DNA from: Chromatiaceae bacterium
GTDB taxonomy: Bacteria; Pseudomonadota; Gammaproteobacteria; Chromatiales; Chromatiaceae
Direction of reading: 5' to 3'
Length of the DNA: 64,000 bases
NCBI GenBank assembly: GCA_019356535.1
Contig: CP037918.1
Span: 1,332,315 to 1,396,314, forward strand
Of this stretch, positions 3,051-26,495 are shown piece after piece; position 1 is the first letter of the stretch, and every line of letters begins with the position of its first letter. The notes under the pieces were generated by a model. It was not told the origin of the DNA and did not search any database. It saw nothing but the letters and a program-made list of their open reading frames with translations. The position numbers were made by a program, and so were the translations under genes.

Positions 3051-3142
3051 TTCGGCAACGTCTTGAACGACACAGAGCGATCCACACCGCGCCGCGGGAC
3101 TCACGCACGCCACCGTCCACTACTCCGAACGATCGTTGCCAT
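3050..3142 (-). pseudogene. 5' remnant of a second tyrosine integrase
   Basis: MATIVRSSGRWRA*VPRRGVDRSVSFKT aligns with the N-terminus of the intact integrase (MATIWRREKGWTARVRRAGHNVSRSFRT); internal stop; ATG 144 bp from the att core versus 154 bp for the intact copy. Confidence 0.75.
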
Positions 3143-3285
3143 CTCTTGCCCCCTATTTGCCTGGACAGTTGCTGGGACAGTTCGGGACTAGCAACAATGA
3201 GCGCACGCACGCGCAAACACCTAGCGAGAAATCTGCTTGGCAGACAGCTAGATGCCGCCACATGCAAACGAGTGAGCGATACATA

Positions 3286-4021: not shown

Positions 4022-6282
4022 GTCTTAATCCCCTTTCTATCGGGTCTGCCTTTCTACAGATGGCGACTATGTAATTGCCAGCAAGACTCGGGTCTTAATC
4101 CCCTTTCTATCGGGTCTGCCTTTCTACTTCCGCTATCCTGAAGTCTCAAGAGAAGAAAGCGTCTTAATCCCCTTTCTATCGGGTCTGCCTTTCTACAGAA
4201 GGATATCAGGAACTGTTCAAACTGATCTGGTCTTAATCCCCTTTCTATCGGGTCTGCCTTTCTACTGCACAAAGCACCGAGCACTGCAAGCACACAATGT
4301 CTTAATCCCCTTTCTGTCGGGTCTGCCTTTCTACGAGGCGAGGCAATGAAAACGTACAGCTTAGAAGTCTTAATCCCCTTTCTATCGGGTCTGCCTTTCT
4401 ACCGAACTGGTTAACCTGTTCTTCAAAATCGGGATGTCTTAATCCCCTTTCTATCGGGTCTGCCTTTCTACGCGGATATGAGCGCGGATCGTCAAAACTT
4501 GTTGCGTCTTAATCCCCTTTCTATCGGGTCTGCCTTTCTACGTGGAACGAAGATGAATTGCTTGCCCTTCGTGGTCTTAATCCCCTTTCTATCGGGTCTG
4601 CCTTTCTACGACGTGTACACGAAGAAAGTCGGCGACAAGACCGTCTTAATCCCCTTTCTATCGGGTCTGCCTTTCTACATCACGACGCCAGCGCCCAGGG
4701 CGCAATCCAATAGTCTTAATCCCCTTTCTATCGGGTCTGCCTTTCTACCCACCACCCGGTGGGCCGCGGGTCGGTCGTCATCGGTCTTAATCCCCTTTCT
4801 ATCGGGTCTGCCTTTCTACATCCAGGAGTTGTCCGACAAGATCCGCTCGCTGCGTCTTAATCCCCTTTCTATCGGGTCTGCCTTTCTACGCTATTGCAGC
4901 GTTCGCTATCACGGATAGCGAAGGTCTTAATCCCCTTTCTATCGGGTCTGCCTTTCTACGAGAGTGCAGTCTTCGATGCGTATCCCACAATGACGTCTTA
5001 ATCCCCTTTCTATCGGGTCTGCCTTTCTACTGAACGCCTATTCGATCTGACTCAGATCGACGGTCTTAATCCCCTTTCTATCGGGTCTGCCTTTCTACCA
5101 GAGTTGAAGAAAAGCTCGATAGAGCTGGTCGTCTTAATCCCCTTTCTATCGGGTCTGCCTTTCTACATGGACGCAGCAATAAAAATGCCTGAATCGTTAC
5201 GTCTTAATCCCCTTTCTATCGGGTCTGCCTTTCTACAACACTGAGAATGAAAGCGCGAAGCGTGCTATGTCTTAATCCCCTTTCTATCGGGTCTGCCTTT
5301 CTACTCCGAGCGTACTGAGCGCAAATTTGAAGATGGTGTCTTAATCCCCTTTCTATCGGGTCTGCCTTTCTACAGCGCAATAAAATGACAGAGCGCGCTC
5401 AGAAATGTCTTAATCCCCTTTCTATCGGGTCTGCCTTTCTACCTAAAATTGGTGATAAAAACTTTACATCAATTATGTCTTAATCCCCTTTCTATCGGGT
5501 CTGCCTTTCTACCTATTAAGATGGCCCGATATGGTGGTATGCATTCGTCTTAATCCCCTTTCTATCGGGTCTGCCTTTCTACTCTGGGCCTATGAAAACC
5601 GCTGGTTCGCCGACGGTCTTAATCCCCTTTCTATCGGGTCTGCCTTTCTACACCTGTGGGTGGACGACGTGCCGCCAGAGATGGCCGTCTTAATCCCCTT
5701 TCTATCGGGTCTGCCTTTCTACAGGTCGAGTGGACAAATGATGGCGTCGAAGCTGTGTCTTAATCCCCTTTCTATCGGGTCTGCCTTTCTACAAAAAGAA
5801 AAAGTAATTAGCTGTTCTTCTATATGGTCTTAATCCCCTTTCTATCGGGTCTGCCTTTCTACAGCTTCGTCGTCTCGCGTTGCACTCTGCGCTATCGTCT
5901 TAATCCCCTTTCTATCGGGTCTGCCTTTCTACTGCAATTCTGAGCAACATCGACGCAAACACCGGTCTTAATCCCCTTTCTATCGGGTCTGCCTTTCTAC
6001 GATTTGAGCGGCGCAATGGAGAACATCGCCCATATGTCTTAATCCCCTTTCTATCGGGTCTGCCTTTCTACTCAGGAGCGCGTATTACAGCGTTTATCGT
6101 CACGGGTCTTAATCCCCTTTCTATCGGGTCTGCCTTTCTACACATCATCACCGAAAACGATAGCGCGAAACGCGCGTCTTAATCCCCTTTCTATCGGGTC
6201 TGCCTTTCTACCCCACGGGATCTCTGTATGGGCATACAACGGGAACGTCTTAATCCCCTTTCTATCGGGTCTGCCTTTCTAC
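4022..6282 (-). CRISPR. CRISPR array 1: 33 repeats, 32 spacers (32-35 nt)
   Basis: 36-bp repeat, minus strand GTAGAAAGGCAGACCCGATAGAAAGGGGATTAAGAC; the ATTAAGAC 3' handle is typical of type III; one variant repeat at 4299; leader at the high-coordinate end. Confidence 0.99.
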
Positions 6283-6380
6283 CGTATGGCCATGTTTTCC
6301 CTTATTATTCATGCTGTTGCATCGGCAGTTAGGAAAACTTTTCGGCATTTCGAAGCTGTCCGGTGTTATCGTCTTCGGCA
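6283..6380 (-). promoter_or_regulatory. Leader of CRISPR array 1
   Basis: AT-richer non-coding stretch between the cas2 stop and the first repeat; shares a ~30-bp motif with leader 2. Confidence 0.75.
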
Positions 6381-6683
6381 TCACTCGCCACCTTCAAGGA
6401 TAGCAGACCATTCCGCTTCTTCGCCCAGGAACACGTCTTCCGGGAATCGCGTTTTACCGATATGAAGGCCGTCTGCCTGGTTCTGGAGCGGGTATATCCT
6501 GATATCGTCTTCATTGGTGATGACGGCGCGCAGATCGGCTACAAGCGCCTCCAGACGGGTTCTGCTGAGTTCTGCCAGGAACACCGAGTACTGCAGGGGT
6601 ATGCCGTAGTTCTTGCACGTCTTGTGGACCCGCACCAGACGACGGGGGTCGGCAATGTCGTAGGAAACCAAGTATCGCTTCAT
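6381..6683 (-). CDS. cas2: CRISPR-associated Cas2 (second copy)
   Basis: YLVSYDIADPRRLVRV...LQYSVF; ATG at 6683 overlaps the upstream stop (ATGA). Confidence 0.93.
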   Translation of the reverse strand: MKRYLVSYDIADPRRLVRVHKTCKNYGIPLQYSVFLAELSRTRLEALVADLRAVITNEDDIRIYPLQNQADGLHIGKTRFPEDVFLGEEAEWSAILEGGE

Positions 6684-7468
6684 GGGCAATCGCGGGTGGC
6701 TGTCCAGAGGTGAAGACGCGCCAGGGCCCGGCGGCCTGTCTCGTCCAGGGTGGGTTCGAGCTGCTGGTAGAACCAGGTCAGATGACGCTGCCGTTGCCGT
6801 TCATCATCGAAGGCCTTGCGGGCCGCGGGATAACGACGCAGCAACCCGGCCCAGTGAAGCAGAATCTTCCACTGCAGGATACCGGCGAGATCGGTGGGCA
6901 GGTCGATAATGCCACCGGTCAGGTGGGGAGTCTGCGCGCCGATGCCCAGGCGCATGAGCCGTTCGGTGGTCCAGGCAAGCGTCCTGGCGCGCAGATGTTC
7001 AATGCTGGCGATCACTGCCTGGCGTTTGAGCTGCCTGCCCACCGTCTCCAGGAGCAGCCGGTGTACCCGGTCGGGATCCGGCAGATGCCCCAGCCAGGGA
7101 TAGTGCCTTGCCAGGGCGAGCAGTTGCTCCCTCTGGTGGTGCGCGCACCAGTCGGCATAGCGCTCGGTGCCGTCGGCGCGGGCTAGAAGCTCCTCCAATT
7201 GCTGTACCAGCGAAGAGTGCTCGCCGCCGGCACCCAGCATGCGCGCCACAATCGTCCCTCGATCGTCGATGAAGATCACCGGGATGCCCTTGCCCAACAG
7301 GCAGAGCAATGCTTCCTGCTCCCAGAGGACCGCGGGGTGGCTGACCACGCGCGAGAGCCGTTCGACCGGATACAGCCGATCGGCCTCGTCTACGCACCGC
7401 ACCAGCAGCGCCGGTCCGTCCAGAAAGACACGGGCACCCTTCCGGCTTTCGAGATAGAGCGGTTTCAT
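6680..7468 (-). CDS. Divergent Cas1-like protein lacking catalytic motifs (262 aa)
   Basis: Cas1-type N-terminal beta domain (LYL...GARVFLDGPALLV...YPVERLSRVV...ALLCLLGKGIPVIFID..G); no EG..A..Y, no N..L..GY, no catalytic His; ATGA overlaps on both sides. Confidence 0.75.
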   Translation of the reverse strand: MKPLYLESRKGARVFLDGPALLVRCVDEADRLYPVERLSRVVSHPAVLWEQEALLCLLGKGIPVIFIDDRGTIVARMLGAGGEHSSLVQQLEELLARADGTERYADWCAHHQREQLLALARHYPWLGHLPDPDRVHRLLLETVGRQLKRQAVIASIEHLRARTLAWTTERLMRLGIGAQTPHLTGGIIDLPTDLAGILQWKILLHWAGLLRRYPAARKAFDDERQRQRHLTWFYQQLEPTLDETGRRALARLHLWTATRDCP

Positions 7469-8430
7469 GGGGTGCTGCTCCCTGTCGGCCCGAAGGTCGC
7501 GAATCGCCTGGCCAGGGTCATGGCGGCCCGGCGCAGGGCCCGCCGCGCCGGCTGTATGCGGCATTCATATGCCTGGTAGAAATGGCGCCGGCCCGCCTTG
7601 GACAACAGGCAGGCCTCGCCGTCCCGGGTGAAGTGCCTGGCGGTGATGAGTTGTTCACGGCACAAGTCCCAACAAAGGCGGTCGACCTGGGGGCGCAGCG
7701 GCTCGATCATGTCGGAGGCGAGCGACTCCCGACCGTACGCCGGTTGGTGATAGAAACCCAGGTAAGGGTCGAGGCCCGCCATCCAGACGGCCTTCACCGC
7801 CTCGCCATGCAGCAGGGTGTAGCCCAGCGACAGCAGCGCGTTGAACGGGTCCCTTGGGGGCCGCCGGTTGCGTCCGGAAAACCCGAGCGATGGGGGAAGT
7901 ATCGCTGCCAGCCCGGCAAAATAGGCCTGTGCCGCACCACCCTCCATCCCTAGCAAGGTCTGGACAGTCGGCTGCGGCTGTCTCGCCAGCCTCAGACGCG
8001 CCTCCCGCACAGACAAGATGGCCTTTCGCAGGGCCAGGCGGGCATCGCCCCGCGCCTCGGCGGCCCGTTCCAGAAACTGTTGCTGGCTGCGAAGCTTGAG
8101 CAACACCAGACGCTTACCCCACCCCGTCCGCCAGGCCAGATCGTCATACGCGCGGGCCTGGCCCAGCCGACGCCGGGCATCGTTGTGCAGAGGCCCGGTG
8201 AAACTACCCTGGAGCCGGTGGTGCCTGCCCGACAGGGTACTCAAGATGACGCCGTTGTCCGCCAGATGGCCCAGCACGCTGGTGTCGAGCGCCACCGTGC
8301 CGCGGATCACGATCCGGTCGAGCAGGTGCAGGGGCAGATTGCTGCGCCGTCCTTCCCGATCACGGATCACGATGCTGGCACCCTCACGCTCGATGGACGC
8401 CACCTGCCGATCCAGATACAAGGTGCTCAT
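7465..8430 (-). CDS. cas1: CRISPR-associated endonuclease Cas1
   Basis: LGMEGGAAQAYF, RPPRDPFNALLSLGY, GFYH and SLASDMIEPLRP are all intact; no RT domain. Confidence 0.97.
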   Translation of the reverse strand: MSTLYLDRQVASIEREGASIVIRDREGRRSNLPLHLLDRIVIRGTVALDTSVLGHLADNGVILSTLSGRHHRLQGSFTGPLHNDARRRLGQARAYDDLAWRTGWGKRLVLLKLRSQQQFLERAAEARGDARLALRKAILSVREARLRLARQPQPTVQTLLGMEGGAAQAYFAGLAAILPPSLGFSGRNRRPPRDPFNALLSLGYTLLHGEAVKAVWMAGLDPYLGFYHQPAYGRESLASDMIEPLRPQVDRLCWDLCREQLITARHFTRDGEACLLSKAGRRHFYQAYECRIQPARRALRRAAMTLARRFATFGPTGSSTP

Positions 8431-8436
8431 CCGCGC

Positions 8437-8721
8437 CTATCCCACGTAGAACCAGTCCGGGTCTGCCGGCGCGACGGCCTTGCCCAGCACGCGCGATTGC
8501 ATGCTCGGGTCGTGACGGATGAGCAGGAAGCGATCTTCTGTCTCATCGAGCAAGGCGCGCATTTCCTTGATAAGCCGCCAGTATTCGGCCGGTGTCAGAT
8601 AGCACTCGAACACCGACTTCTGGCGACCGCACGCATAACCCTTGAGGATCTTCAGGGCCTTGCGCAGGCGACGTGGGTCCGACACGTCATAGGCGGCAAT
8701 GTAGAGTCTGCGTGTGCTCAT
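8437..8721 (-). CDS. cas2: CRISPR-associated Cas2
   Basis: YIAAYDVSDPRRLRK...QKSVFEC; RBS GGGAG. Confidence 0.95.
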   Translation of the reverse strand: MSTRRLYIAAYDVSDPRRLRKALKILKGYACGRQKSVFECYLTPAEYWRLIKEMRALLDETEDRFLLIRHDPSMQSRVLGKAVAPADPDWFYVG

Positions 8722-8818: not shown

Positions 8819-9073
8819 TCAGTGAATTCGGCGTGTTGCACTGTCCGGGTCCGACGATTCGTCATCGGGGAAGGCCTCGTTCATGGCGTCGAACATCAGG
8901 TCCGCTGTCCTGAAGCAGGCCGCTACCACGTCTTCCGCGGGAACAGTGGAAAAGGCGGGATTGCGCAGCATTGCCGCCATAGCCCGGTTTGCGACTTCCC
9001 AGATCAGGTCCGATTTTCTCTGACGCATCGGATTCTCTACCTCGGTTCCGGCGACGGGGTGATCGAGGCTCAT
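8819..9073 (-). CDS. Small hypothetical protein upstream of the adaptation operon (~84 aa)
   Basis: GAGG then ATG (MSLDHPVAG...); helical-looking DLIWEVANRAMAAMLRNPAF segment; no family recognised. Confidence 0.5.
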   Translation of the reverse strand: MSLDHPVAGTEVENPMRQRKSDLIWEVANRAMAAMLRNPAFSTVPAEDVVAACFRTADLMFDAMNEAFPDDESSDPDSATRRIH

Positions 9074-9291
9074 CGATGACCGTTCCTCCAGATGCGCAAG
9101 CGACAAGGGCTGGCCATCGACGCCCGCTGCCCATTCTCTGCGTTCGCAATTCGTTCTTGGGAGACGGCAGGCTTGCCGACAACGCCCGTCGCACCAGACT
9201 GTTCTAGGATTCCCATGCGCAACAGGCAATGAAACACGGAGCATCAGCCGTGAACCCGTGCAGCTATTCCAGTGACGGCGATTGGGGCGAC

Positions 9292-10416: not shown

Positions 10417-11260
10417 CTACGCAGCAATCTGCGCAGGCACCTGGTAGCCGAGTGCCTGATGGGGCCGCTCGGTGTTGTAGTGGCGTATCCAACGCCCGAT
10501 CACTTCTCGTGCATGGCTGATCGACTCAAAGTGGTGATGCCATACACATTCTTCTTTCATGGTGCGGATAAACCGCTCGATCATGCCGTTCTGCTCCGGG
10601 CTATATGGCGTAATGAACTCCCTGGGTCAATCCATAGCCCCTGACCGTAGCCGTATAGCGATGGGAGGTGAAGACCAGGCCGTTGTCGCTGCGTAGCTTC
10701 AACGGCCCGGATACGCGTCCCAGATGACCAAACCGGTGGATCAGCGCCTCTTCCAGTGCCGCTTCCGCTGTACAGGCATTGCCATGGGCCGCCAAACGCC
10801 ATCCCAGCAGTTCCCTGCTGGCACAATCGATGACCAGTGCAATATGGCACCAGCGATCACGGCCACACCAGATCCGCGCCAGGTCCGTGGCCCAACGTTG
10901 ATCCGGCGCTTGGGCAACCGATGGCAACGCACTCACCCGGGGACGATGCCCTTTGGGTCGCTTGCGTACCTGCCACCCCTTGAGTCGGCAGATTCGCTGT
11001 ACCACCTTGCGGTTCCAGCCCAGTAGAAACGCGATGCGACGGTAACCGTAGGTCGGAAAGCGCTCAATGATGGCTTTCACCTTCTCGGCTTTCGTCTCGT
11101 CAACCACAGGCTGCCTCACCGCAGGCCGGTAGTAGTAGCTCCTGCGACTCACCCCCAGCCATCGACAGAGCTTGGCAACGGAAACCTCATGGCCTTCTGC
11201 TTTGAGCTCCGCCTGCACCGACTTGACTAGCTTTCTTCCTCGTCGAGCAGGCGCTGCCAC
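10417..11260 (-). pseudogene. IS3 transposase OrfB (DDE), frameshifted
   Basis: WATD, LRSDNG; an extra base in the C run at 10620-10622 shifts the final EFITPYSPEQNGMIERF...YNTERPHQALG segment out of frame. Confidence 0.85.
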
Positions 11261-11538
11261 TTTTTTATCGCTTTGAGCTCCAGTTCCTTCTCGCCCAAGG
11301 CCGCATATGCCTCCGCCAGCTTGCGCTCGTACTGTTCCCGAAGGTCTCGCGGGCGGGTTCGGAAGTTGTTCTCCATGCCCTGAATGCCTTCTTCCACCCA
11401 GCGCTCTACATCACCGGGGGTAAGGTCATGTTGCCGAGAAACCTCTGCGACCGTTGTCTTGCCTTTGAGAATATCCAGTACGACCTGCGTCTTGCGCTTG
11501 GCTGTCCACCGCTTGATCTCGTTTTCTTGCTTGTCCAC
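11227..11538 (-). CDS. IS3 transposase OrfA
   Basis: RWTAKRKTQVVLDILKGKTTVAEVSRQHDL HTH; overlaps orfB at an A-rich shift site. Confidence 0.88.
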   Translation of the reverse strand: MDKQENEIKRWTAKRKTQVVLDILKGKTTVAEVSRQHDLTPGDVERWVEEGIQGMENNFRTRPRDLREQYERKLAEAYAALGEKELELKAIKKWQRLLDEEES

Positions 11539-11640: not shown

Positions 11641-13122
11641 ACCTTAACCCCCTTTATATCGGGTCTCAGTTACTACGGCGAGAAGGAGTACACGCTGCGC
11701 ATCGAATACAGTCTTAATCCCCTTTATATCGGGTCTCAGTTACTACACTTCAGCTAGAGGAGGAAGCTCATGGAGCGAGTCTTAATCCCCTTTATATCGG
11801 GTCTCAGTTACTACTTTGACTTTCTCGAACTGGCAGAACTTCACGGGTCTTAATCCCCTTTATATCGGGTCTCAGTTACTACCGGAAATTGGACGCTGGG
11901 ACAGCGCGTTTCCTGGTCTTAATCCCCTTTATATCGGGTCTCAGTTACTACGATCCGCATTTCCAAAGTAAGCAAGCTTGACGGGTCTTAATCCCCTTTA
12001 TATCGGGTCTCAGTTACTACAGCAATTGCACTCGCGCTCGACAGAATCGAAGTCTTAATCCCCTTTATATCGGGTCTCAGTTACTACACCGCAGTGGGCG
12101 AAGACCCTCGCACCGAGCAGTCTTAATCCCCTTTATATCGGGTCTCAGTTACTACCTCGACGGCAACCAGATCCCCCTCAGCGTCTTGTCTTAATCCCCT
12201 TTATATCGGGTCTCAGTTACTACCTCAGATCCGAAAGAACCTCACTGGGATGCACGTCTTAATCCCCTTTATATCGGGTCTCAGTTACTACAGAGAAGCG
12301 TGCGGAGTCTTTCGCGCAAGCACGCGTCTTAATCCCCTTTATATCGGGTCTCAGTTACTACGCCATCGACACCGCCGTTGCGCTGTGGGGATACGTCTTA
12401 ATCCCCTTTATATCGGGTCTCAGTTACTACGGATTAACTATAAAAACAACGTCGCGTCCGGAGAGTCTTAATCCCCTTTATATCGGGTCTCAGTTACTAC
12501 TCTCGCGGTTCGTCTTCCGCGGCTTCGTCGAGGGTCTTAATCCCCTTTATATCGGGTCTCAGTTACTACGACGTGCTACGACGAAGAACTCATTGAAGCG
12601 TGTCTTAATCCCCTTTATATCGGGTCTCAGTTACTACCGGTTGGCAATCGGGCTGATCACGTTCATCAGTCTTAATCCCCTTTATATCGGGTCTCAGTTA
12701 CTACCGGAGTGCGCGCGAAAATCGCGCACGTCAACGTCTTAATCCCCTTTATATCGGGTCTCAGTTACTACGTCGTCGATAACGGGTATGAGCACACGCT
12801 GCGCGTCTTAATCCCCTTTATATCGGGTCTCAGTTACTACACCAGAAGATTTTTGCAGGCGATGAAATCATCAAGCGTCTTAATCCCCTTTATATCGGGT
12901 CTCAGTTACTACACAAAAGGACAAGGAAAAGATGGCGAAGATGCGCGTCTTAATCCCCTTTATATCGGGTCTCAGTTACTACACCAGCCTCCTGATAAAT
13001 ATGTACTGAAAAGGGGATGTCTTAATCCCCTTTATATCGGGTCTCAGTTACTACAAAACAACAAAATGACAGAACGTGCTCAGAAGGTCTTAATCCCCTT
13101 TATATCGGGTCTCAGTTACTAC
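11641..13122 (-). CRISPR. CRISPR array 2: 22 repeats, 21 spacers (31-36 nt)
   Basis: 36-bp repeat, minus strand GTAGTAACTGAGACCCGATATAAAGGGGATTAAGAC; the degenerate trailer repeat at 11641 fixes the orientation. Confidence 0.99.
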
Positions 13123-13267: not shown

Positions 13268-15343
13268 TCATCGGGACATCGGCTCTTCGGCCTGTTCCAG
13301 CACCCACCCATAGACCTCCCTGTCAACGGCCTTCAGCAACCGCTCACGCTCCTCCGTTGGCAGAAAGGCATGTGCAAACCCCTGCTTCACGATCGCCAGG
13401 GCCTCCCACAGGGAGAGTTTCGGCCACAATACCGCGGCCTTGAAAAGCTCGCCGGTGGCATCGGTGCGACTGATGCCGGGGTTGTCGGTGCACAGGGCCA
13501 AGGGCACCCCCTCTCTCCAGTAGTGCTGCAGCGGATAGGGTCTGTCGCCACCGTAACCGACCACCTCGTCGTTGGAGCTGGGGCACAGTTCGATACAGAT
13601 ACCGCGGTCGCGAAAGCGCTGCAGCAGCTTGTCATCGTCGCCCAAGGTCAGGCCATGGCCGATGCGGTCGGCGTGCAGCCGGTAGGCGGCTTCCCAGATC
13701 TTGTCAGAGGGGGTGCCTTCGCCGGCATGGATGGTGATGGGCAGGCAGGCGCGAAAGGCCGGTTCGAAGTGTCGGGCAATCTCCAGCGGTGCATGCGTGC
13801 CGTCCTGCATTTCGTCGCCCGCCAGGTCCAGGCCGACGACGAAGCCGTCCAGTGCCTCCCGGGCATCGACGGCCAGTTGCACCACCGCCTCCAGGCGATC
13901 GGCTTGCCTGCGGTCGGCAATGACGATGAAGCGCAACGTGATGTCGGAATATTCTCGCGCAATGGCCTGCAGTTGCCGCAGAAAGCCGATCTGTGCCTCG
14001 CGGTCCCGGCGATATTTCTGCGGGCTGCCGCGCAGCTCAAGGTAACGCAAACCTTCGTGGCGGGCCGCCTGCAACAGCGCGTGCATGTAAGCCTGCAGCG
14101 CGGCAGGATGGCCGAGAACCGCCGAGCCGGTCAGTTCCCCGGGGCGTTCGTAGGCGGCAAAGCCCCGCCCACTCTTTTGCAGGCCATGACGGGGGCTGGT
14201 GACATCGAAGAGGTTGTACTGCAACTGTTCGTCGTCGGCCTCCACCAGCAAGGCGGCGGCATTGTGTGCACGCTCGCCTGCCTTCAACTGCCGGGGCCAC
14301 TCCCAGTCCCATTCCCGGTTGGCCAACAGGGGGCGGACCCGATCCAGGGCCCGTGCCCGTTCCCTTTCGGTGAGGCTGTCCCAGATGGCGCGGCCGACCC
14401 GGCGTTGCGCGGCGATGTCGAGGCAGCCCCCGATATGACGATGCAGGTCGGCCTTGGGCAGACGCCGCAGCGCTTCGGGGTCCACCTCGGCCAGCCGTGT
14501 GTGGCGCAGGCGCTCGATCAGCGCCGGGGGCAACCGGTAGAGCGAACGCCAGTTTTCATGGTGCTCGCCTCCAGCCAGCAGTTGCAGGTAGTTACCGAGC
14601 AGCCGCGAGCCTTCGCGTTCCCTGCGTTCGATCTCGCGCGGCAGGCTCGGCTCGGCGGCCCGCCAGGTGAAGGCACCCCCTGCCGCCGGCAGGGGATAGC
14701 TGGCCGCAGTCAGCCTCGGCTGGCCCGACTCCTCGATATCGAGCAGCTCGCTGCGCTTTCCCGCACCAACCACCAGAGGAACCAGCCCCTTGCAGTCGTC
14801 CACGCTCAGGGGCCGGGTGAAGGTGTCCGGTGCCGCCTGCTTCATGGGCTCGCTCATCTGGTTGAACGGCGGGGCGATCACATGCAGCAGGGCGGCGCAC
14901 CCGATCAACATGCCGGCGCGTTGCAGGTCGGCCGACATGGTCTTGCGTCCACCGGCCAGCGAGAGGTAGAGGCGCCCTTCCCTGCCGGTGCGTTCCGAGG
15001 CCAGCAGCACGGCACGGTAGATCAGTTCGCGCACCTGGTCACCCGCGACCTGGTCAGCGACATCGGTCACCTCGGCGGTGCGCCATACCCGCAGCGGCAG
15101 ATCGGGCGCGATCAGATCACGCCAGCGTTCGAGCTTTTTCAGCCCTTCATCGAGCTGAGTGTCGTCGGTGGTGCAGACCCACAGTTCGTCCACTGGGTGC
15201 AGCTCGTGTTTCCGGCGCAGGCTCTCGATGGCCGCATGGTCGGGGTGATCGCAATAGATGGGGCAGCGCACGGGATCGAGGAGCCCGAAGGCCTCGGGGA
15301 TCACCGCCCAGGTCTGGCCGAGGGTGCAGAGGAGGATGTTCAT
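13268..15343 (-). CDS. cad1: CARF-adenosine deaminase fusion (Cad1/CAAD-type cOA-activated effector)
   Basis: N-terminal CARF (ILLCTLGQT, SLAGGRKTMS); ADA motifs DLHRH, TIHAGE, RIGHG, ELCPSSN, TDNP. Confidence 0.92.
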   Translation of the reverse strand: MNILLCTLGQTWAVIPEAFGLLDPVRCPIYCDHPDHAAIESLRRKHELHPVDELWVCTTDDTQLDEGLKKLERWRDLIAPDLPLRVWRTAEVTDVADQVAGDQVRELIYRAVLLASERTGREGRLYLSLAGGRKTMSADLQRAGMLIGCAALLHVIAPPFNQMSEPMKQAAPDTFTRPLSVDDCKGLVPLVVGAGKRSELLDIEESGQPRLTAASYPLPAAGGAFTWRAAEPSLPREIERREREGSRLLGNYLQLLAGGEHHENWRSLYRLPPALIERLRHTRLAEVDPEALRRLPKADLHRHIGGCLDIAAQRRVGRAIWDSLTERERARALDRVRPLLANREWDWEWPRQLKAGERAHNAAALLVEADDEQLQYNLFDVTSPRHGLQKSGRGFAAYERPGELTGSAVLGHPAALQAYMHALLQAARHEGLRYLELRGSPQKYRRDREAQIGFLRQLQAIAREYSDITLRFIVIADRRQADRLEAVVQLAVDAREALDGFVVGLDLAGDEMQDGTHAPLEIARHFEPAFRACLPITIHAGEGTPSDKIWEAAYRLHADRIGHGLTLGDDDKLLQRFRDRGICIELCPSSNDEVVGYGGDRPYPLQHYWREGVPLALCTDNPGISRTDATGELFKAAVLWPKLSLWEALAIVKQGFAHAFLPTEERERLLKAVDREVYGWVLEQAEEPMSR

Positions 15344-16554
15344 TGCCGGGACTCTGGCGGCAAGAGTTGTTCGAACAAGGTCTCGAGGAGATCGCGCATC
15401 GCCTCCGGGCTGGACAGCGCCCGCTGGACCTCGTCGCCCTTGGGCTGGCTCCCGTGGGCCACGGCGTTGCGCAGGCGCCGCAGGCTGTCATAGGCCCGGT
15501 AGCGCGGGGTGCGGGGTTGTATCGCCCTTTCCCTTGTTTCGAAGCGTTCCCGGACACTTTCACGGTGTGCCATGTTGTCCGGGTCGAGGGTCTTGTCCTC
15601 TTCGCGTTGCAGGCGGGTGGTGAAGGCCTCCCAGCCGGTCAGGGCCGCTTCGAGAAAGCGCTCACGACGCAGATATTCCAGAGCCAGTTCACGCTGGCGC
15701 AGGTAGTAGTTGTCCTGGCGGGCCCAGGCGAGACGCCGGCTCAGTTCTTCGCGGAACAGCGCCAGCGCCGGGTCGTCCGTGCCTTGTTCGAGGCGTTCGA
15801 GCACCTGTCTCAGGAGCGATCTGGCCTGACCGATGCGGTTGACCGTTTCGAGGAAGGCTGCCCGCCGCAACAGTTCGCCCGTGTCGCCCCCGATCAAGGG
15901 ACCGAAGACCCCGTAATCGCCGGTCTGGCCATACACGGACAGCGCCTCGAGCCAGTCAGCGATATCGAGCAGGCCGGCCAGATCGTGCACGGACGCCCGA
16001 CCGGTATCCGGATCGTAGGCGCCGTACCAGATGTGCGCGATCTTCGCGCTCCGCACCTTGCGCAGGTGCAGGGCCGAGAGCAGTGTCAGCATGGGCAGGT
16101 GGCGAAAGCCGTGGGTAATGTCCAGATCCACGCGGTCGCCTTGCCCTACTTCTTCGGCCAGATCCCGCAGCAGACCCACCTGCTCCCGGGAGCTGTTGCA
16201 GTACGAGATCAGACGCAGGCGCACCTCGCAGCCCAGACGGTCCGCCAGCACCGGGGCGAGGCGGTCGAGCCTCTCCTGGGTGACGGCTTGCCGCTCGGCC
16301 TCACCCACCAGCGCCAGGCGATCTTCCTCGGCCGCATCACCCAGCGCGATATCGCCTTCGAACAGGTGATCCCACATGCTGCCCGGCGTGCCCAGCACCA
16401 CCAGCCGGTCTGGCCGGAGCCGCCGCTGCAGCGCCCAGCCGAAGAAGGCCAGTGGCTCACAATCGGCGCCGTCACCGAAATCGTAGCTGGTGGTGCGGTA
16501 GCCCTGTTCCCCGCGAGGCGTGCGGCCGAGAAAGGTGATGAGGATGTGGGGCAT
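15340..16554 (-). CDS. csx1: Csx1/Csm6-like CARF-HEPN ribonuclease (TM1812 family)
   Basis: ITFLG, Y..TSY.F, DITHGFRHLP; HEPN RNAVAH. Confidence 0.92.
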   Translation of the reverse strand: MPHILITFLGRTPRGEQGYRTTSYDFGDGADCEPLAFFGWALQRRLRPDRLVVLGTPGSMWDHLFEGDIALGDAAEEDRLALVGEAERQAVTQERLDRLAPVLADRLGCEVRLRLISYCNSSREQVGLLRDLAEEVGQGDRVDLDITHGFRHLPMLTLLSALHLRKVRSAKIAHIWYGAYDPDTGRASVHDLAGLLDIADWLEALSVYGQTGDYGVFGPLIGGDTGELLRRAAFLETVNRIGQARSLLRQVLERLEQGTDDPALALFREELSRRLAWARQDNYYLRQRELALEYLRRERFLEAALTGWEAFTTRLQREEDKTLDPDNMAHRESVRERFETRERAIQPRTPRYRAYDSLRRLRNAVAHGSQPKGDEVQRALSSPEAMRDLLETLFEQLLPPESRQ

Positions 16555-16564
16555 GTGGACCTCG

Positions 16565-17845
16565 TTATTCGGCTTCCAGTTTCGCGAGTTCGTCGGCAAT
16601 GCCCTGCTTCTTCTGCTTTTTGCTCCAGGGCAGCGCCTCCAGGGTCTGGCGGATCAATCGGGCGGCACTCCGACGATGTACGGGGTCTTCCCAGGCCTGT
16701 GCGGCCTTCAGCAGCTCCAGGCGCTTTTGCGCGGTCTGACAACCGGCCGACAGCAGCCCCTTGCGTTGTTCCTCTTCGCAGGTCTTGCGCAGCGCCTCCA
16801 GCGCCTGTTCCTCGGGTGACAGTTGCGCGAATGCCTGTTGCCTGGCCTGCTCCTCCCGCTCCCGGGCCGCGGCCTCGTCAAACCGCATGGCGCCGTAGCC
16901 CACCGCGGTCTTGGCGCCGAAGCCCAGCCAGTCGAAGGCGTGTTCGAAGGCCTGTTGCAGCAGGCGCCGCCAACGGTCGTTTTCGGCCAGTTCCGGTGCA
17001 ATGCGGCGCAGGAAAGGCAGATCACACACCACGTGAAAGGTGAAGCGCGAGCCCGGAGGCACGGTGAGGAAATACACGGGAATCGGCTGGCCGGATTCGT
17101 GGGGCGATTCCCCTTGCATGTAGTAATGGCTCTGGTGGCCTGTCATCACCTCCACTATCAGCTTGTCGCCTTCGATGCCCGGGATCACGTCCCAGAAGCT
17201 CAGGGCGCCCCGGCGGGCGTCGTTGCTGTCTTCCTTGCCGAACAGGGCGTCGATGGCCGTTGCGGTCCAATCCGATTCCATGTCCCATTCAGCGGCAGCA
17301 ACGCCGGCCAGTTCCCGTGCCGCCTGGCGCAGCACCCCCTTGACCCCGCTGCCCGGCAAGTAGGGCAAGCCATAGGGCCAGAGAAAGGCAAAGCCGTTCT
17401 CCAACGGGTGTTCATTGCCCAGGCCCGTGGTGAAGGGTGCCACCGCCTCGCCATCGACCACCATCACCTCGTCGCCGGTGCAGGCGGTCGATGCCAGCGC
17501 CTGCTGGCGAGCGACCAAGGCCTGCATGCGTACCTTGTCGTCACCACTCAAGCCGCTGACCCGTTTCCAAGCCGATTGGGCACCCTGGTCGTTCTTGTGC
17601 CATAGCGCCGGGAATCGTCCACGCGCCTGTTTCGCGTGCGAAATGGCGGCGTCCATCCCCTGCTGTTCCAGGATCTGTCCAAGTTCCCGTCCTTGCGGAC
17701 TCTTGGCGCCAGCCATCTTCCGGATCTGTTTTTCCTGGTCTGCTCGCTCGGTCCAGATCGGCAGATACATGGAGAAGCGCATCCCCGGCGAGGCTTCCGA
17801 CAGGTCTTGCTTGCCGATGTATTCGGGTATCGCTGCGATGGGCAT
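16565..17845 (-). CDS. cmr6: Type III-B RAMP Cmr6
   Basis: TTGLGNEHPLENG, PYLPGSGVKG, GFGAKTAVGYG. Confidence 0.95.
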   Translation of the reverse strand: MPIAAIPEYIGKQDLSEASPGMRFSMYLPIWTERADQEKQIRKMAGAKSPQGRELGQILEQQGMDAAISHAKQARGRFPALWHKNDQGAQSAWKRVSGLSGDDKVRMQALVARQQALASTACTGDEVMVVDGEAVAPFTTGLGNEHPLENGFAFLWPYGLPYLPGSGVKGVLRQAARELAGVAAAEWDMESDWTATAIDALFGKEDSNDARRGALSFWDVIPGIEGDKLIVEVMTGHQSHYYMQGESPHESGQPIPVYFLTVPPGSRFTFHVVCDLPFLRRIAPELAENDRWRRLLQQAFEHAFDWLGFGAKTAVGYGAMRFDEAAAREREEQARQQAFAQLSPEEQALEALRKTCEEEQRKGLLSAGCQTAQKRLELLKAAQAWEDPVHRRSAARLIRQTLEALPWSKKQKKQGIADELAKLEAE

Positions 17846-17846
17846 C

Positions 17847-20285
<2,439 letters not shown>

Positions 20286-20289
<4 letters not shown>

Positions 20290-23198
20290 GCGGCATCCTC
20301 CCTGGTGTTGCGGTGGGCGGCCCCGGATACCCGGGTTTCGCGGGCCAGAAACTCGGCCACGGAGAGGAAGTTTTCGATCCAATCGAGGCGTTCATCCCGC
20401 CTGGCATGAATGATCGCCTGCTCGACCAGCGATCGGGCGAGCCCAGGCAGCTCATAATAGTCGCGGGTCGTCTTCTTATTGCACTGGCGTGCCAACTGAT
20501 AGGCCAGCAATTCGGCTACCATGGCACCGTCTCCCTCGGGCTCGGGCAGGTCACGCAACCAGAGCGCGCTGTTGTAGACGGCGCGACGCGATACGGACGG
20601 CTCAGCAAGGAAATCGCGTAGCCGCAGCAGCAGCCGCAACGGTTCGCCCCAGCGGGCAGTCAGGTGCAGCGCTCCGCCCGCCCGCTTGACGATGGTGATG
20701 GAGAAGGCATCGCGACCGCCCTCCTCCTTGGCGCGTTTCTCCGCCGCACGCAGCTCGCGCAACACTGCGCCCAATGGGGCCTGGTGGTGGGCGATTACCG
20801 CACCGCAGCTGGCCGTCGCCTGCTCGCCCATCAGCCGTAACAGCCGGCCTCGGTGCCGCACGAAGCCGTTGCCTTGCCGTTCGAAGCCGAGCTCGGCCTC
20901 CAGGCCAACCGCTTCGGGTGCTATCCCCGAATAGGCGGCGCGCGCCGAAGCCATCGCCGGCAACAGATCGATCACTGGCAGCATGGCCATCAGGTCGTCG
21001 CCGCCGGCATACAGAACGCGTCCATGGTGACGACGCTCGATCACTTCGGGGGCAAGTGTCAGCGCAAAATGGTTGAGCGCCTCGGAGATGGCCATGTGGC
21101 GTGACGGGCTGGGGGCGCGTTTCTCCCTGGCATAGGCGACAAAGTTCGGATCGTCCTCGAAGACGCGCAACGCGGCGCGGATCTGTGGATGGAAGCTGGT
21201 CTCGTGGGCCAAGGCCACCTCTCGGTCGGCCGACAACCAAGCTCCCATGCGGTCGCCGTCCATCAGCAGCAGGCCGTAGTAGGCTTCCGGTTTATGGCCA
21301 AGCCACGCTTCCAGTAATCGGGCTGCCTGGCGCTGTTGTGTTTCGTCCTCCGCTTCGCGCATCTCTTCCAGCCACCCTGGCAGGCGACGCAGCAACGCGC
21401 CGTCGGGATGATCGCGCAGTGCCGCCGAGAGCTTGCGCGGCAGTGCGACCCGCTCGTCGTGGCTGGCGGCGATCTTCTCGCGCAGTGCTCGGGAGAACTC
21501 ATGCCCGGCATTCAGCGCATTGGCGATGGACCCGGCCAGCGCCATGGTGTGAGTGCTGACCACGAAACGGTTGAAACCCTGATCCACCAGATCACCCAGC
21601 TCACGCACGAACAGCGTCGGCCAGAGGCGCTTGAGCGTGTTGAGTGCACCGAGGTGTTCGCCCTTTCTGGCCCAAGCGGGCTTATTGTCGGCGACCTTGG
21701 TCCACAAGGTCTCTTCGTGCTCGCCTTCCCTGAAACCCTTGTCTTGACGACTCTTCCTCTTGCCCTGCGGCAGGTCAAGCTGATCACAATCGGTGGTGAG
21801 CCACTCGGCCTCGCCTGACAGCGAATCGCGCCAGCCTTTCTGTTGCAGCTGGGCGAAGGGTCGAGCCGACTTGGTCGCAGCCACCAGGCGCTCCAGCAAC
21901 TCGTGCAGGGCCGGGTAGAGGCTGCCGGGATTGGGCCGCCAGAACCATCCCTGCTCCAGCTCGATGCCGCCGGATAGCAACCGCCAGGCCTCGCTGCCTA
22001 GATAGCCGGGCGGGCTGGACGCGAAGAAGGGCCGCATCGCCTCGGCCAGCCGAGTGTCGCTGGCCGCTACCCTGCCATCTTTGTCGGTTCCCACCAGCGA
22101 CCAAGGCACCGCAGCCCAGTGCACTTCTGGGAAGCCGGCGAGCTGCTCGCGGATCTGCCGATAGCCCGGCAGCTTGGGGTCGTCACCGATGCCGGCTGCC
22201 TCCAGCAGCAGACGGAAGGCCTCGTCGGCCCGCTCCCGCGCCCAGTCGCGAACCCGTTGGGTGATCGTCTCGGCAATCTCGCGCGCCTGGCCCGCCGGTA
22301 CGATGGCAGTGAACCGGTTGGGCAACGCGGCGCCGAACAGCGGATTGGCATCGGACTTGGACCGGGTCCAGTCACATCCCTCGAACAGTTCCGGGCGCAG
22401 GCCCATGGTCTCGCGTAACCACAGATCGATCTGGGGCACGCCACGCAGGCGCGGAAACAGGATCGCCTCGGGGCCGAGTCGTTCGCAGACCACCCGCATT
22501 GCCTCCCAGCTCATGCGCGAGAGCAGATGTGAACCGGCCCAGAGGTCGGAGGTGGTGCGAGCGCTGGCGATGAACTCCTGTACGGGGCCGAGGGAGACGG
22601 CCAGTAACGCCGGGCCACCCTCGCCACTGACAAAACAACCCGCCAGCGCCACAGTCAAATCGAGATGGTCGTGGATACTGTGATCAGGTACCCGAGTATC
22701 GGCCGGCAGTTGCGCCCAGAGGCTCTTGATCTGCTCGGCCTCTACCTCAGGGCCAAAGCGCCAGAAGGCAAGCGCGGTCTTTTGCAGGTCGTCCGGGTGT
22801 ATCAAGCCACGCAGGTGATCCAGTGCCAGCGCCTTGGCCTGTTCCGGTGTAATGTCGCTCAGCCGGCCGATATCGAAGGCTTCACCGGTGAGAGGATGGA
22901 CGATCACCGGACTTTCATGGAAGCGAACCTGCTGCCAGCGCGGATAGCCATGCTCACCGTCACGGTTCGGAAAGGCAGCGCGATCGGCAGCGGAGGCCCA
23001 GTGATCGGCCTGTTTCACCGCGTGGGCCACCATGGGCGGCAAGTCGCTCAGGCCCAGGTCTTGTCTCAACGTGGCCGAAGTACCTCCCTCGTGCCCCTCG
23101 GCGGAACGCATCAGGATCAGCGCCTTCTCGATAGGATCGTGCAGGCGAGCGGCGAGCTTAGTTTGCCAGAGCTTATTATTGTCCCTTTGATCGCTCAT
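20286..23198 (-). CDS. cas10: Cas10/Cmr2 large subunit with intact palm domain
   Basis: LHDP, DTRVPDHSI, DLWAGSHLLS, MDGDRMG, YAGGDDL. Confidence 0.97.
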
Positions 23199-24256
23199 GA
23201 TTGACTCCTCTTCACTCGCTTTGCCTCATCAAGATAGGCATGCACCTGCGACCAGACCTCTTCGATGGCACCGAGGTCGGGCTGGAACTGCCGCGGCGGC
23301 CTGCAGGGGAGGTGGAAGATCCGACCGTACAGCCTGCCATCTTCCCCCTGCACCACCTTGAAACGGAGGCTGTTGGGGAGGCGGGCATTACGATCCCACC
23401 GTTTGGTCCCGTGGTTTGTTACCGGATAGGCCAACCAATGTCGGTCTTCCACCTGGCGATGCGGCGGCTTTTCCTTGGGAAAGCGGAAGCGAGTGCGCAG
23501 GTCGATCTTGATCTCCGCCAGCCGCCTCATGAGCTGCTGCCAGTCGTCGAAGGGATCGGTCTGCCAGATCAGGACGCCCTTTCCATCCTTGCCGATGGCA
23601 TGGGGCCAGTCACGATCCAGACATTCGCGCCAATCACGCAGCGGATACTTACCGTCTGACAGGTCGCCGGCGAGGGAGAGCGAGCCCCAACCATTGCGCG
23701 AGCGTCCACCCAGCGCGCCAAAGGCGTCGATCAAGAACAGCGCCCTGTCGAGCAACTCGGCGTCGACAGCAGGGAAGGCCAGGCGCAGGGTGGCCTGTTC
23801 GCCTGCCTGGATGGCGGCGTTCGTCTTCAGGGCCGTCCGCCTTGACTGCCTGTCGTAAGTCAGCGGACCAAACCCGAGATAGAGGTCAGCCCCAACCGAC
23901 CGGCCTACCTCCGGATGGCTCACTTTCCCGATCTCATTCCATTCCGAACGCCTCAGCTTGCCGGTGCTCCATTTATCCAGCCGCAACCGCACGCGACTGC
24001 GATTGCCGCTGCCGTCGGCGGCAGTGCCGAACAGCGCCCCCTCCTGCTCACGCAGGCTCCGGTAGTCGTTTGAAAAACCATTGGCTTCCGCCCAGGCCAC
24101 CCGCCACCACTCGCGCAGCAGGTGCTTGAAAGGTGGCGCGCGCCACTGGCCGTCCTGCTCGGCGTTGCCGAGAAAGGCAGGTGTAACGAAGCGGATCGTG
24201 AACTGCCGGGTTTCCATCCGGCCTTGAAGCGATTTGGTCATGGCTTGGGCCGTCAT
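23195..24256 (-). CDS. cmr1: Type III-B RAMP Cmr1
   Basis: FVTPAFLG, LREWWR, LFG, ALGGRSRNGWGSL. Confidence 0.94.
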   Translation of the reverse strand: MTAQAMTKSLQGRMETRQFTIRFVTPAFLGNAEQDGQWRAPPFKHLLREWWRVAWAEANGFSNDYRSLREQEGALFGTAADGSGNRSRVRLRLDKWSTGKLRRSEWNEIGKVSHPEVGRSVGADLYLGFGPLTYDRQSRRTALKTNAAIQAGEQATLRLAFPAVDAELLDRALFLIDAFGALGGRSRNGWGSLSLAGDLSDGKYPLRDWRECLDRDWPHAIGKDGKGVLIWQTDPFDDWQQLMRRLAEIKIDLRTRFRFPKEKPPHRQVEDRHWLAYPVTNHGTKRWDRNARLPNSLRFKVVQGEDGRLYGRIFHLPCRPPRQFQPDLGAIEEVWSQVHAYLDEAKRVKRSQS

Positions 24257-25437
24257 GTCGGGTCCTCCTCCGGGTGTTCATTTTGTGCCTTGTGATCGCC
24301 GAGACCGGCTCCGGCAAGCCTGCCGAACCGCACCGCATCCCGCGGCAGCTTGAGGCTGTAGCGCCGCGGCCGGGTGCCACCGTCGTCGATGTAATACAGC
24401 CGGGCCACCGCCCCTAGGCGGTTCTTGAGGATGCGGTGCAGTTTGCTCTTGGTACTGGAGAAATACTCACCGTCCATGCCGTCGCGCAGGGCCTGTTCGG
24501 TGCGCTCGATGTCATCCAGCGCATTCCCTCGGATCACGCGATATTGCGCCAGAAAGCGTTCTGACCAGACCTTGTCGGGGGCGTACTTGCCCGGCGCCGC
24601 CAAGGCTTCATCCCCTTGTATCAGGCGTTGCGCAAACAGGCTCAGCAGGGCCAGCTGCGCCGGCGGCAGTTCAATCAATGTGCCGCCGGCGAGAATGCGT
24701 TTGCCTTCGCGATCGATCACTAGCTCCGGCGGCTGCAGAGCACGTTGCGCGGCCGCCACCGCCTCGGAGAAGGTCGCCCCGCCCTGCCGCAGCCCGTCGT
24801 CCAGGCCATGCCGCAAGCGCACGAAGGGAATCTCGGCCAGTTCGACCTGTGCATCCCGGGTGTCGGCAAGCTTGTTGTCGCGGGTGGTGATGACCCGGGC
24901 ATACGGGGTCGGGTAGAAGAAGTCCCAGCTCGACTCATAGGGCTCGCTCACCAGCACGTGGGACAGGCGGTCCTGCGGGCGACCGAACAGGGAAAGCGCA
25001 TAACCCAGGTAGAAGCCCATGGTCTTTCGCCCGCCCGCAATGGAAACATGCAGAGCGGCTTTCTCGTCGGCGGTGAATTCCCGGACCTTTTCGGTGACCC
25101 GATCGGCCAGCCGCTCATTGTCCGCCGGGGTACGGATGTCATCGAGCGCCTTACCCTGCTCGTCCGCGATCGTGTGGATATGGCTGGCATCGAAAAGGAT
25201 GGGCGGCAGCCCGTAGTCGCCACAAAGGCGATGGAACCAGCCTGGATCCTCCGACAGCAGGGCCAGTTCGGCGCGCTGCTTTCCTTCAGCCGTGGTGAGC
25301 AAGTGGATCTCGGTTGGAACGAAGAGGGGATCACGCCGCACAGCCAGCGCATACAAAGTTTCGGTAACCACCTGAGGGCTCAGTCCAGTGACCGCCAGCA
25401 GAATCCGCCGGGAATATTGCTCAGGCCGACTGTGCAT
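24253..25437 (-). CDS. NE0113-family CARF protein (putative ring nuclease) with C-terminal winged-helix-like domain
   Basis: ILLAVTGLSPQVVTETLYAL, SIAGGRKTMG, LSHVLVS, FFYP; extra ~120-aa C-terminal domain. Confidence 0.85.
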   Translation of the reverse strand: MHSRPEQYSRRILLAVTGLSPQVVTETLYALAVRRDPLFVPTEIHLLTTAEGKQRAELALLSEDPGWFHRLCGDYGLPPILFDASHIHTIADEQGKALDDIRTPADNERLADRVTEKVREFTADEKAALHVSIAGGRKTMGFYLGYALSLFGRPQDRLSHVLVSEPYESSWDFFYPTPYARVITTRDNKLADTRDAQVELAEIPFVRLRHGLDDGLRQGGATFSEAVAAAQRALQPPELVIDREGKRILAGGTLIELPPAQLALLSLFAQRLIQGDEALAAPGKYAPDKVWSERFLAQYRVIRGNALDDIERTEQALRDGMDGEYFSSTKSKLHRILKNRLGAVARLYYIDDGGTRPRRYSLKLPRDAVRFGRLAGAGLGDHKAQNEHPEEDPT

Positions 25438-25550
25438 CGGATCGCTTACCTTCCCTCTCCGTCGAAAACGGTGCGGGGGGCGTCCATGCGCTTGCCCTGG
25501 CCCCTTCCCGGACCGCCCCGCTGCGGAACAGTGTGCCCGGCGACCTCCAT

Positions 25551-26495
25551 TCAGTGGGCCTCCCGCAAGCTTGCCGCGACCAAGCGATACCGTCCCAGGC
25601 CCATGCTGGTGAACTTCCCCAGGTGCAGCCATTGGCCCAGCCACAGGAGGGGCCACCAATCAGCGAAGCCATCACCGGACAGGGCTATCCGGCCCATCAG
25701 GCCACCAACTTGCATGCGTGTCTTCTGGCGCGAGGAATAACGTGACCAGTCCTGCCAGACAAGCTCGCTTTCGACCTTCAGGCCGAGATCACGTGCCCTG
25801 CCCAGCGACTCCCTCGGCGGGCGCTCGCCAATCAGTTCATAAACGCGATAGAGCAGGCTCTCGAACAGCATGGCCGGCACGAACTGATCCGGGCGCACCA
25901 AATGTCCCCGTCGTTTGAAACGCCAGGGTGTTGCCCATTCCAGCACCACATGGCCGGGCCAGGGCGGCGGCTGAATTGCGGCAGGCACAGGCGGAGCGGT
26001 CAACACGTTTCCATCGTAGACCGAATGCCAGTTGTCTCCGCCCAAGGTGCCAAGCGCGGCCAGTTCATCGACATCGAATCCGACATTCTTAGGCCCAAGT
26101 CCCAGGCGCCCCCCAGCCTGGAACGCCTGCACCAGGTAAGGAAGTTCCCGGTCGTGAGGCGACAGCAGGCTCATCTCAAAAGTGAAGCGCCCACCCTTTG
26201 GATAATGCCGTCTCCCGGACTCTGAAACGCTCAATACATACGGAACCCTGACCGAGCCGCTGATATGCGATGTAGGCTCGAACAGCCGGGTATAGACACA
26301 TGAATCGGTCAGGGGACAGTCAGCGCAGGTTTTGCGGCGGGTCACACAGGCAGTTCGCCGAAGACCGTGTCCAAGTAGCCCACGCAGGGCCGAACCGAGG
26401 TACGGTGGGGCATCGAAGGGCTGTGCGAAGCAAAGCGTCCAACGCAGCCGGTACAAGGCGGGGAAACGATCAAGTATTTCCAAGGACGAATCCAT
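25551..26495 (-). CDS. cas6: crRNA-processing endoribonuclease Cas6
   Basis: GSALRGLLG, C..C Zn-like insert, C-terminal G-loop HLGKFTSMGLG. Confidence 0.93.
   Translation of the reverse strand: MDSSLEILDRFPALYRLRWTLCFAQPFDAPPYLGSALRGLLGHGLRRTACVTRRKTCADCPLTDSCVYTRLFEPTSHISGSVRVPYVLSVSESGRRHYPKGGRFTFEMSLLSPHDRELPYLVQAFQAGGRLGLGPKNVGFDVDELAALGTLGGDNWHSVYDGNVLTAPPVPAAIQPPPWPGHVVLEWATPWRFKRRGHLVRPDQFVPAMLFESLLYRVYELIGERPPRESLGRARDLGLKVESELVWQDWSRYSSRQKTRMQVGGLMGRIALSGDGFADWWPLLWLGQWLHLGKFTSMGLGRYRLVAASLREAH

Follow-up and report, generated by a model that had tools for sequence, protein, structure and literature searches.

A Cas1 paralog without the usual catalytic residues recurs in a four-gene adaptation module associated with type III-B CRISPR systems

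In the Cas1(4)-Cas2(2) integrases that insert new spacers, catalysis falls to only one protomer of each Cas1 dimer while the other is structural, and in the established Cas1 structures it is the N-terminal domain that mediates dimerisation. The canonical complex, represented by the Escherichia coli type I-E system and also by types I-C, I-G and I-D, assembles its six subunits from a single cas1 gene and a single cas2 gene. Here we describe an adaptation module from a Chromatiaceae bacterium whose four proteins have the same folds, but in which Cas1 and Cas2 are each invariably encoded as a pair of paralogs, and one of the Cas1 paralogs, called Cas1* below, cannot be catalytic in the usual way. 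The module lies in a 64,000-nucleotide stretch of contig CP037918.1 (assembly GCA_019356535.1, positions 1,332,315 to 1,396,314 of the forward strand), which we refer to as the window and whose own numbering is used throughout. Its genes are as follows.

8721..8437, minus strand: cas2a, a 94-residue Cas2 that opens the four-gene module (Pfam CRISPR_Cas2, 2.9e-15)
8430..7465, minus strand: cas1, a 321-residue catalytic Cas1 integrase (Pfam Cas_Cas1, 2.2e-77, full length)
7468..6680, minus strand: cas1*, a 262-residue Cas1 paralog (Pfam Cas_Cas1 over residues 9-104; PADLOC PDLC01185)
6683..6381, minus strand: cas2b, a 100-residue Cas2 that closes the module (Pfam CRISPR_Cas2, 2.3e-20)

The length of Cas2b is counted from an ATG codon; the list of open reading frames (ORFs) offers an alternative TTG start two codons upstream. 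ATGA start/stop overlaps join cas1 to cas1* and cas1* to cas2b, and cas2a is separated in frame from cas1 by 6 bp (8431-8436). A preliminary description of this DNA had reported the four genes to be tightly coupled, and it was right about their order, their place and both overlaps, but the first gap is 6 bp rather than 7.

The nearest tested case, and by analogy a partial experimental precedent, is the module of Vibrio vulnificus YJ016, in which spacer acquisition by RT-Cas1 depends on both Cas2A and Cas2B and for which a Cas2 heterodimer was proposed (PMC6821258). It likewise comes from a gammaproteobacterium and has two different Cas2 proteins, arrays on its flanks and type III Cmr-like effector genes alongside. 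It differs in having a single Cas1 that is fused to a reverse transcriptase, with no second Cas1, and in its order of RT-cas1, cas2A, cas2B. The 321-residue Cas1 of the present module carries a Cas1 domain only, with no reverse transcriptase fusion, and no reverse transcriptase was found in the window.

The Cas1* family has already been seen and catalogued, and the window is one more instance of it. The best PADLOC match of Cas1* (1e-14) is PADLOC-DB profile PDLC01185, 'Cas1, diverged variant, second in the loci'; the next Cas1 model in PADLOC scores 8e-8, and distant family members match PDLC01185 at 1e-34 and 1e-41. The description fits, since Cas1* comes directly after a standard cas1 in the window and in all relatives examined. 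The entry is a profile with a one-line description, of which the subclade of the window matches model positions 1-198 of 246 only. Literature searches returned no paper on the function of the family, its lost catalytic residues, the paired Cas2a and Cas2b, the four-gene order or any experiment, and the family goes unmentioned in a 2022 review of type III adaptation. Thus the earlier statement that no characterised example is known holds as regards functional study in the literature searched, but the profile is catalogued and V. vulnificus offers a partial precedent.

Comparison of the locus with its relatives leads us to conclude that Cas1* is very probably maintained by selection as a non-catalytic component of a fixed four-gene adaptation module. 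Hidden Markov models (HMMs) were built for all four proteins and run over each fetched locus. In an even sample of 400 Gammaproteobacteria genomes, the order cas2a-cas1-cas1*-cas2b was found in 26 of 26 loci, from 25 genomes with a strong Cas1* match; these include one locus that runs off its contig and two in which the cas1 frame is split. All four loci of a phylum-level sample shared this order. Searching the class sample with Cas2a instead yielded one more intact module, together with three exceptions described below, and brought the genome total to 31 loci that carry Cas1*, every one of them in this order. Metagenomes were scanned from Cas2a as an anchor, taking the top 80 by similarity from at least 546 matches. 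Within these 80, all 35 loci with at least 2.5 kb of downstream sequence show the full order, and the other 45 comprise 13 complete loci and 32 truncated prefixes of the same order, giving 48 complete loci in all. A close-alignment search of genome contigs for related loci returned two.

The identity of the flanking genes is equally regular. The first Cas2 scores as cas2a and not cas2b in 25 of the 26 class-sample loci (the remaining one, L036, is cut upstream) and in all four of the phylum sample, and the last gene always scores as cas2b, in class, phylum and metagenome loci alike. The start/stop overlaps also recur among the relatives. Because the same order is seen in every relative that has Cas1* and enough sequence, its recurrence is far beyond chance. 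Conservation of the order across genomes, which had been put forward as a check on the module, is therefore strict and extends to distant genomes.

The only departures are three loci, L176, L177 and L178, where cas1* is deleted and the order is cas2a-cas1-cas2b. L176 (G207:C34, about 7466-7614) retains some 20 codons of the 5' end of cas1* (VKALYIVGPQDTKVILNGPAL...), which follow an intact cas1 with a GTGA overlap. In L177 (G269:C3) and L178 (G373:C3) cas1 is also broken, being split or internally deleted.

The loss of cas1* from these three relatives, together with the disappearance of its catalytic residues, is what could be said for Cas1* being a decaying duplicate without function. We consider this almost certainly wrong, and rejected it on the grounds of selection, of reading frames that remain intact at constant length down to 25-30% identity, and of a position that is kept in more than 75 loci. 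Relative to a 93%-identical Sedimenticola metagenome-assembled genome, a pair with a synonymous divergence (dS) of about 0.17-0.28 and hence unsaturated, the ratio of non-synonymous to synonymous substitution (dN/dS) is 0.20 for cas1*, 0.11-0.16 for cas1 and 0.13-0.18 for cas2b. The uninterrupted 262-codon frame noted in the preliminary description is accordingly under purifying selection, with dN/dS well below 1. In three pairs the identity of Cas1* was 66, 56 and 38% against 76, 68 and 59% for Cas1; judged by these identities, Cas1* evolves faster than Cas1. The family is large: an exhaustive search of cluster representatives gave 449 clusters at a threshold of E<=1e-3 and, at the stricter E<=1e-10, 201; most are 245-285 residues long, with alignments covering most of that length. 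A tblastn search against plasmids gave no match.

At the level of sequence, Cas1* resembles Cas1 in its N-terminal domain. Pfam PF01867 (Cas_Cas1) matches residues 9-104 only (3.4e-6, 26.9 bits; cut-off 22.3), NCBIfam TIGR00287 gives 27.6 bits, under its equivalog cut-off of 71.7, and a sequence-profile search of the PDB produced only weak matches to the N-domain. Alignment of the Cas1* profile to that of its partner Cas1 with hhalign gave a probability of 87% across some 80 residues. Structure prediction reaches further. The AlphaFold2 model of Cas1*, made from a 51-sequence alignment, has a predicted local distance difference test score (pLDDT) of 92 and a predicted template-modelling score (pTM) of 0.90, and its top 50 Foldseek matches in the PDB are all Cas1 or casposase, with template-modelling (TM) scores up to 0.76. 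Because these matches span about 270-290 columns, the model indicates that the whole protein, its C-terminal alpha-helical domain included, has the Cas1 fold. The Cas1-like N-terminal domain that had been recognised by eye is thus borne out by the Pfam match, by the model and by the PDB structures, and the structure and profile searches proposed at the time did find Cas1-fold similarity. Absence of such similarity, and a recent pseudogene free of purifying selection, had been named as the outcomes in sequence that would count against the proposal; neither was observed.

To place the active site, positions were mapped between Cas1 and Cas1* by eye from the register of helices and strands in the two models, with no superposition. 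On this mapping E163 of the partner corresponds to about position 141 of Cas1*, where Glu is found in 3 of 51 family members and the residue is mostly Arg or Lys. H228 corresponds to H182, with His in 8 and Gly in 33 of the 51; D240 corresponds to D193, which is Asp in 48 of 51; and E243 corresponds to G196, at a position that is variable across the 51 sequences. The equivalence of DLPTDLAGILQW and SLASDMIEPLRP, with E changed to G, had been proposed from the letters alone and fits these helix positions, D193 aligning with D240 and G196 with E243. It had also been stated that the paralog lacks the catalytic Glu and His. Neither is conserved across the 51 members, but the window protein does have H182, in the loop equivalent to the catalytic His loop. 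By the same comparison, three elements of Cas1 are missing from Cas1*: a long helix, a beta hairpin and the basic RNRRPPRDP loop at Cas1 residues 178-195. For the family as a whole, the aligned sequences indicate that the usual active site cannot be present.

When set on E. coli Cas1-Cas2 structures, the Cas1* model gave TM scores of 0.64-0.69 for chains B/D and 0.39-0.45 for chains A/C, but the domain angle of a monomer model is unreliable and the catalytic chains were not assigned, so no conclusion was drawn. The partner Cas1 model, used as a control, matched other Cas1 types and showed no comparable contrast between chains.

The first Cas1 of the module was described as having all the catalytic motifs, and the comparison with its orthologs agrees. 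E163, H228, D240 and E243 vary little or not at all across 26 partner Cas1s, these catalytic residues being kept in 23-26 of the 26, and the basic RNRRPPRDP loop is similarly constant. The AlphaFold2 model of Cas1 has a pLDDT of 85, and its best PDB matches are the Cas1 proteins of Cas4-containing type I systems (I-G, I-C, I-D), at 25-29% identity. The two Cas1 families are conserved in different places: in Cas1* the N-terminal domain is highest, at 0.66 versus 0.44-0.53 elsewhere, while conservation of the partner Cas1 peaks in its catalytic core, at 0.73, with 0.52 for the N-domain.

Both Cas2 proteins score well above the Pfam PF09827 cut-off of 23.8 bits (56.7 bits for Cas2a and 73 bits for Cas2b) and retain the YD motif, with the Asp that closes beta-1. 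They were said to be intact yet clearly different, which is upheld: they share 35% identity over 57 residues, and alignment together with their own HMMs places them in two separate orthologous groups. Cas2a orthologs are always 93-95 residues long and end in a conserved tail, ...DP.(F/W/Y)(F/Y)Y(V/F)G. Cas2b orthologs range from 90 to 150 residues, with a conserved core of ..QYSVF.. and DD(V/I)R(I/V)YP and a variable C-terminal extension.

From these sequences we lean slightly towards a heteromeric Cas1/Cas1*-Cas2a/Cas2b integrase in which Cas1* would be the structural subunit. The four genes are best explained as one co-translated spacer-integration module for the neighbouring type III-B system and its arrays. 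Cas1* would fill the place of the non-catalytic protomer of the canonical Cas1 dimer, pairing with Cas1 through the conserved N-terminal beta domain, with a Cas2a-Cas2b heterodimer as the bridge between two Cas1/Cas1* dimers. Two active sites would remain for the two strand transfers at the leader-proximal repeat, 98 bp past cas2b. This architecture fits the conservation of the Cas1* N-terminal domain and keeps two active sites, as integration requires.

The pattern of conservation also bears on whether Cas1* might instead stand outside the integrase core, as an accessory that recognises the leader or repeat in the manner of integration host factor (IHF), or that links adaptation to the Cmr effector. 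Type III systems do without a protospacer-adjacent motif (PAM) and Cas4, so that some other factor must give both site and orientation specificity, and the module is nearly always close to Cmr genes. However, the best-conserved part of Cas1* is the domain assigned to dimerisation and not to a DNA-binding surface, the basic Cas1 loop is missing by the by-eye helix comparison of the models, and the intact module of locus L007 has no Cmr gene within 10 kb. We regard an accessory role as very unlikely.

Two further arrangements follow from the gene order, which at all loci pairs cas2a with cas1 and cas1* with cas2b. The first is an integrase with asymmetric lobes, a Cas1 homodimer being joined through Cas2a on one side and a Cas1* homodimer through Cas2b on the other. 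One lobe would be catalytic and the other dead, serving only to hold either the other prespacer end or the repeat, and the strand transfers would be sequential or would need re-binding. The layout does resemble a duplicated cas1-cas2 pair, and this arrangement would account for both duplications. Nevertheless, known integrases use one active site per Cas1 dimer, so that a dead lobe would leave a single site, and no evidence favours homodimers over heterodimers; we judge the arrangement unlikely. The second would divide the module into two complexes, a Cas1-Cas2a integrase and a dead Cas1*-Cas2b look-alike that captures or protects prespacers, or that regulates or competes with integration. It draws on the same gene pairing, and on the retention by Cas1* of the overall fold and of the near-invariant D193. 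We think it distinctly unlikely, because the tested two-Cas2 system, with its single Cas1, loses acquisition when either Cas2 is deleted (PMC6821258), which argues for one complex, and because strict co-inheritance and translational coupling better fit a fixed stoichiometry.

Returning to the heteromeric integrase, its two halves would be non-equivalent because of the Cas2 heterodimer, and on this basis a stronger form can be proposed, which we offer as possible though doubtful. The complex would be an obligate and intrinsically polar integrase, with two Cas1/Cas1* heterodimers bridged by one Cas2a-Cas2b heterodimer. The Cas2 heterodimer would break the two-fold symmetry, such that the two prespacer ends, and the leader and spacer sides of the repeat, are handled by non-equivalent halves. 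In an RNA-targeting type III-B system that is PAM-less and Cas4-less, a built-in polarity of this kind could decide which way round a spacer is inserted, or which of the two integration steps comes first. The module thereby bears on the question of spacer choice and orientation in type III systems without PAM or Cas4. If true, an integrase naturally subfunctionalised in this way, with one Cas1 dedicated to structure and a pair of different Cas2 proteins, would separate catalytic and structural roles that are confounded in a homomeric Cas1, and its polarity could be put to a direct test using the four proteins, which are small and soluble, and a leader of 98 bp.

Several observations weigh against a heteromeric integrase with a structural Cas1*. 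A swap of the idle Cas1 protomer is not enough to account for the need for two different Cas2 proteins, and the likeness of the Cas2A and Cas2B of V. vulnificus to Cas2a and Cas2b is one of operon arrangement. The profile-profile similarity of Cas1* to Cas1 is limited to about 80 aligned N-terminal residues. The near-invariance of D193, together with H182 in the subclade of the window, may reflect a residual contact with metal or DNA. Finally, L176 has lost cas1* while cas2a, cas1 and cas2b are intact; the module may tolerate this loss, or the locus may be decaying.

Two arrays with related leaders flank this part of the locus.

6283..6380, minus strand: leader of CRISPR array 1, 98 bp from the cas2b stop to the first repeat
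4022..6282, minus strand: CRISPR array 1, 33 repeats and 32 spacers of 32-35 nt
11641..13122, minus strand: CRISPR array 2, 22 repeats and 21 spacers
13123-13267, minus strand: leader of array 2, which comes after the cad1-like gene

The repeat of array 1 reads GTAGAAAGGCAGACCCGATAGAAAGGGGATTAAGAC in transcript sense and that of array 2 reads GTAGTAACTGAGACCCGATATAAAGGGGATTAAGAC. They share their 3' half and handle, and differ in their 5' halves; GGGGATTAAGAC is the 3' end of both in transcript sense. The leaders are partly similar, with blocks of sequence in common, and because of these shared blocks we suggest that one integrase probably serves both arrays. The preliminary description had suggested a possible tie between the doubled genes and the two different repeats. 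This is not supported, and as a general explanation it was dropped: relatives with the module have arrays of a single repeat type, and the two leaders of the window are related. In most extended loci with sequence beyond the module, an array of the same orientation starts within a few hundred bp of cas2b.

Upstream of array 2, Pfam and PADLOC scans identified a type III-B (Cmr) effector and signalling operon, separated from the adaptation genes by a transposase.

13268..26495, minus strand: type III-B (Cmr) effector and signalling operon
25551-26495, minus strand: cas6
24253-25659, minus strand: CARF protein
23195-24256, minus strand: cmr1
20286-23198, minus strand: cas10/cmr2
19168-20382, minus strand: cmr3
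18239-19300, minus strand: cmr4
about 17900-18260, minus strand: cmr5
16565-17935, minus strand: cmr6
15340-16599, minus strand: csx1
13268-15343, minus strand: CARF-adenosine deaminase, Cad1-like (PADLOC CARF_ADA, 4.5e-208)
10601..11538, minus strand: IS3-family transposase ORFs (Pfam HTH_Tnp_1 and rve), between array 2 and the adaptation operon

With Cas10/Cmr2, Cmr1, Cmr3-Cmr6, Cas6 and CRISPR arrays, the locus is a complete type III-B (Cmr) system. Nearly all extended loci have Cmr, Csx1 or Cad1 genes no farther than 10 kb from the module, and the module is intact in 19 of the 30 genomes of the class sample that carry Cmr3 (about 60%). At this frequency, the usual adaptation machinery of a large type III-B lineage has a composition unlike that of any integrase yet studied. 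In one distant relative (L007/L008, 4788-8138) an intact module, with no Cmr gene within 10 kb, lies directly downstream of a gene for a 1116-residue UvrD-family helicase with an MJ0043_C domain.

The IS3-family element is outside the module and splits it from the effector operon. Between cas2a and this element, the ORFs at 8819-9244 (minus strand, 141 residues) and 9229-9888 (plus strand, 219 residues) are without a Pfam match. Past the far end of array 1 are a transposase helix-turn-helix fragment and a HipA C-terminal fragment (2734-3267 and 3463-4014), the latter of 183 residues and covering profile positions 59-210 only, so that the CRISPR island is edged by mobile-element debris.

Three CARF-domain proteins are encoded in the type III-B locus, namely the Cad1-like CARF-adenosine deaminase, the Csx1 CARF-HEPN RNase and one other CARF protein. 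Their domain content suggests that several outputs may be driven by cyclic oligoadenylate. Cad1-like genes are likewise found beside the module in L001, L004, L006 and L048.

Spacer 13 from the leader of array 1 (5374-5406) and spacer 1 of array 2 (13055-13086) agree at 25 of 32 positions when aligned in register, with a 1-nt offset at one end. Both hold ...CTGTCATTTT..., which is complementary to the region of a start codon (AAAATGACAG), and they look like independent acquisitions of one site from two related targets. Taken over all 53 spacers of both arrays, the strand that would pair with the CRISPR RNA (crRNA) is purine-rich (A+G 56%). On this strand six of the 53 carry a Shine-Dalgarno-like motif and an ATG with the frame open to the end, compared with none in the opposite orientation. 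Such a pattern would fit crRNAs that are antisense to mRNAs, and there is possibly a bias towards translation start regions, although the numbers are small and the targets not identified.

Outside the CRISPR locus, at 28411-28629, is a 95-bp tandem repeat of 2.3 copies with a 94% match, which itself holds a 22-bp sub-repeat.

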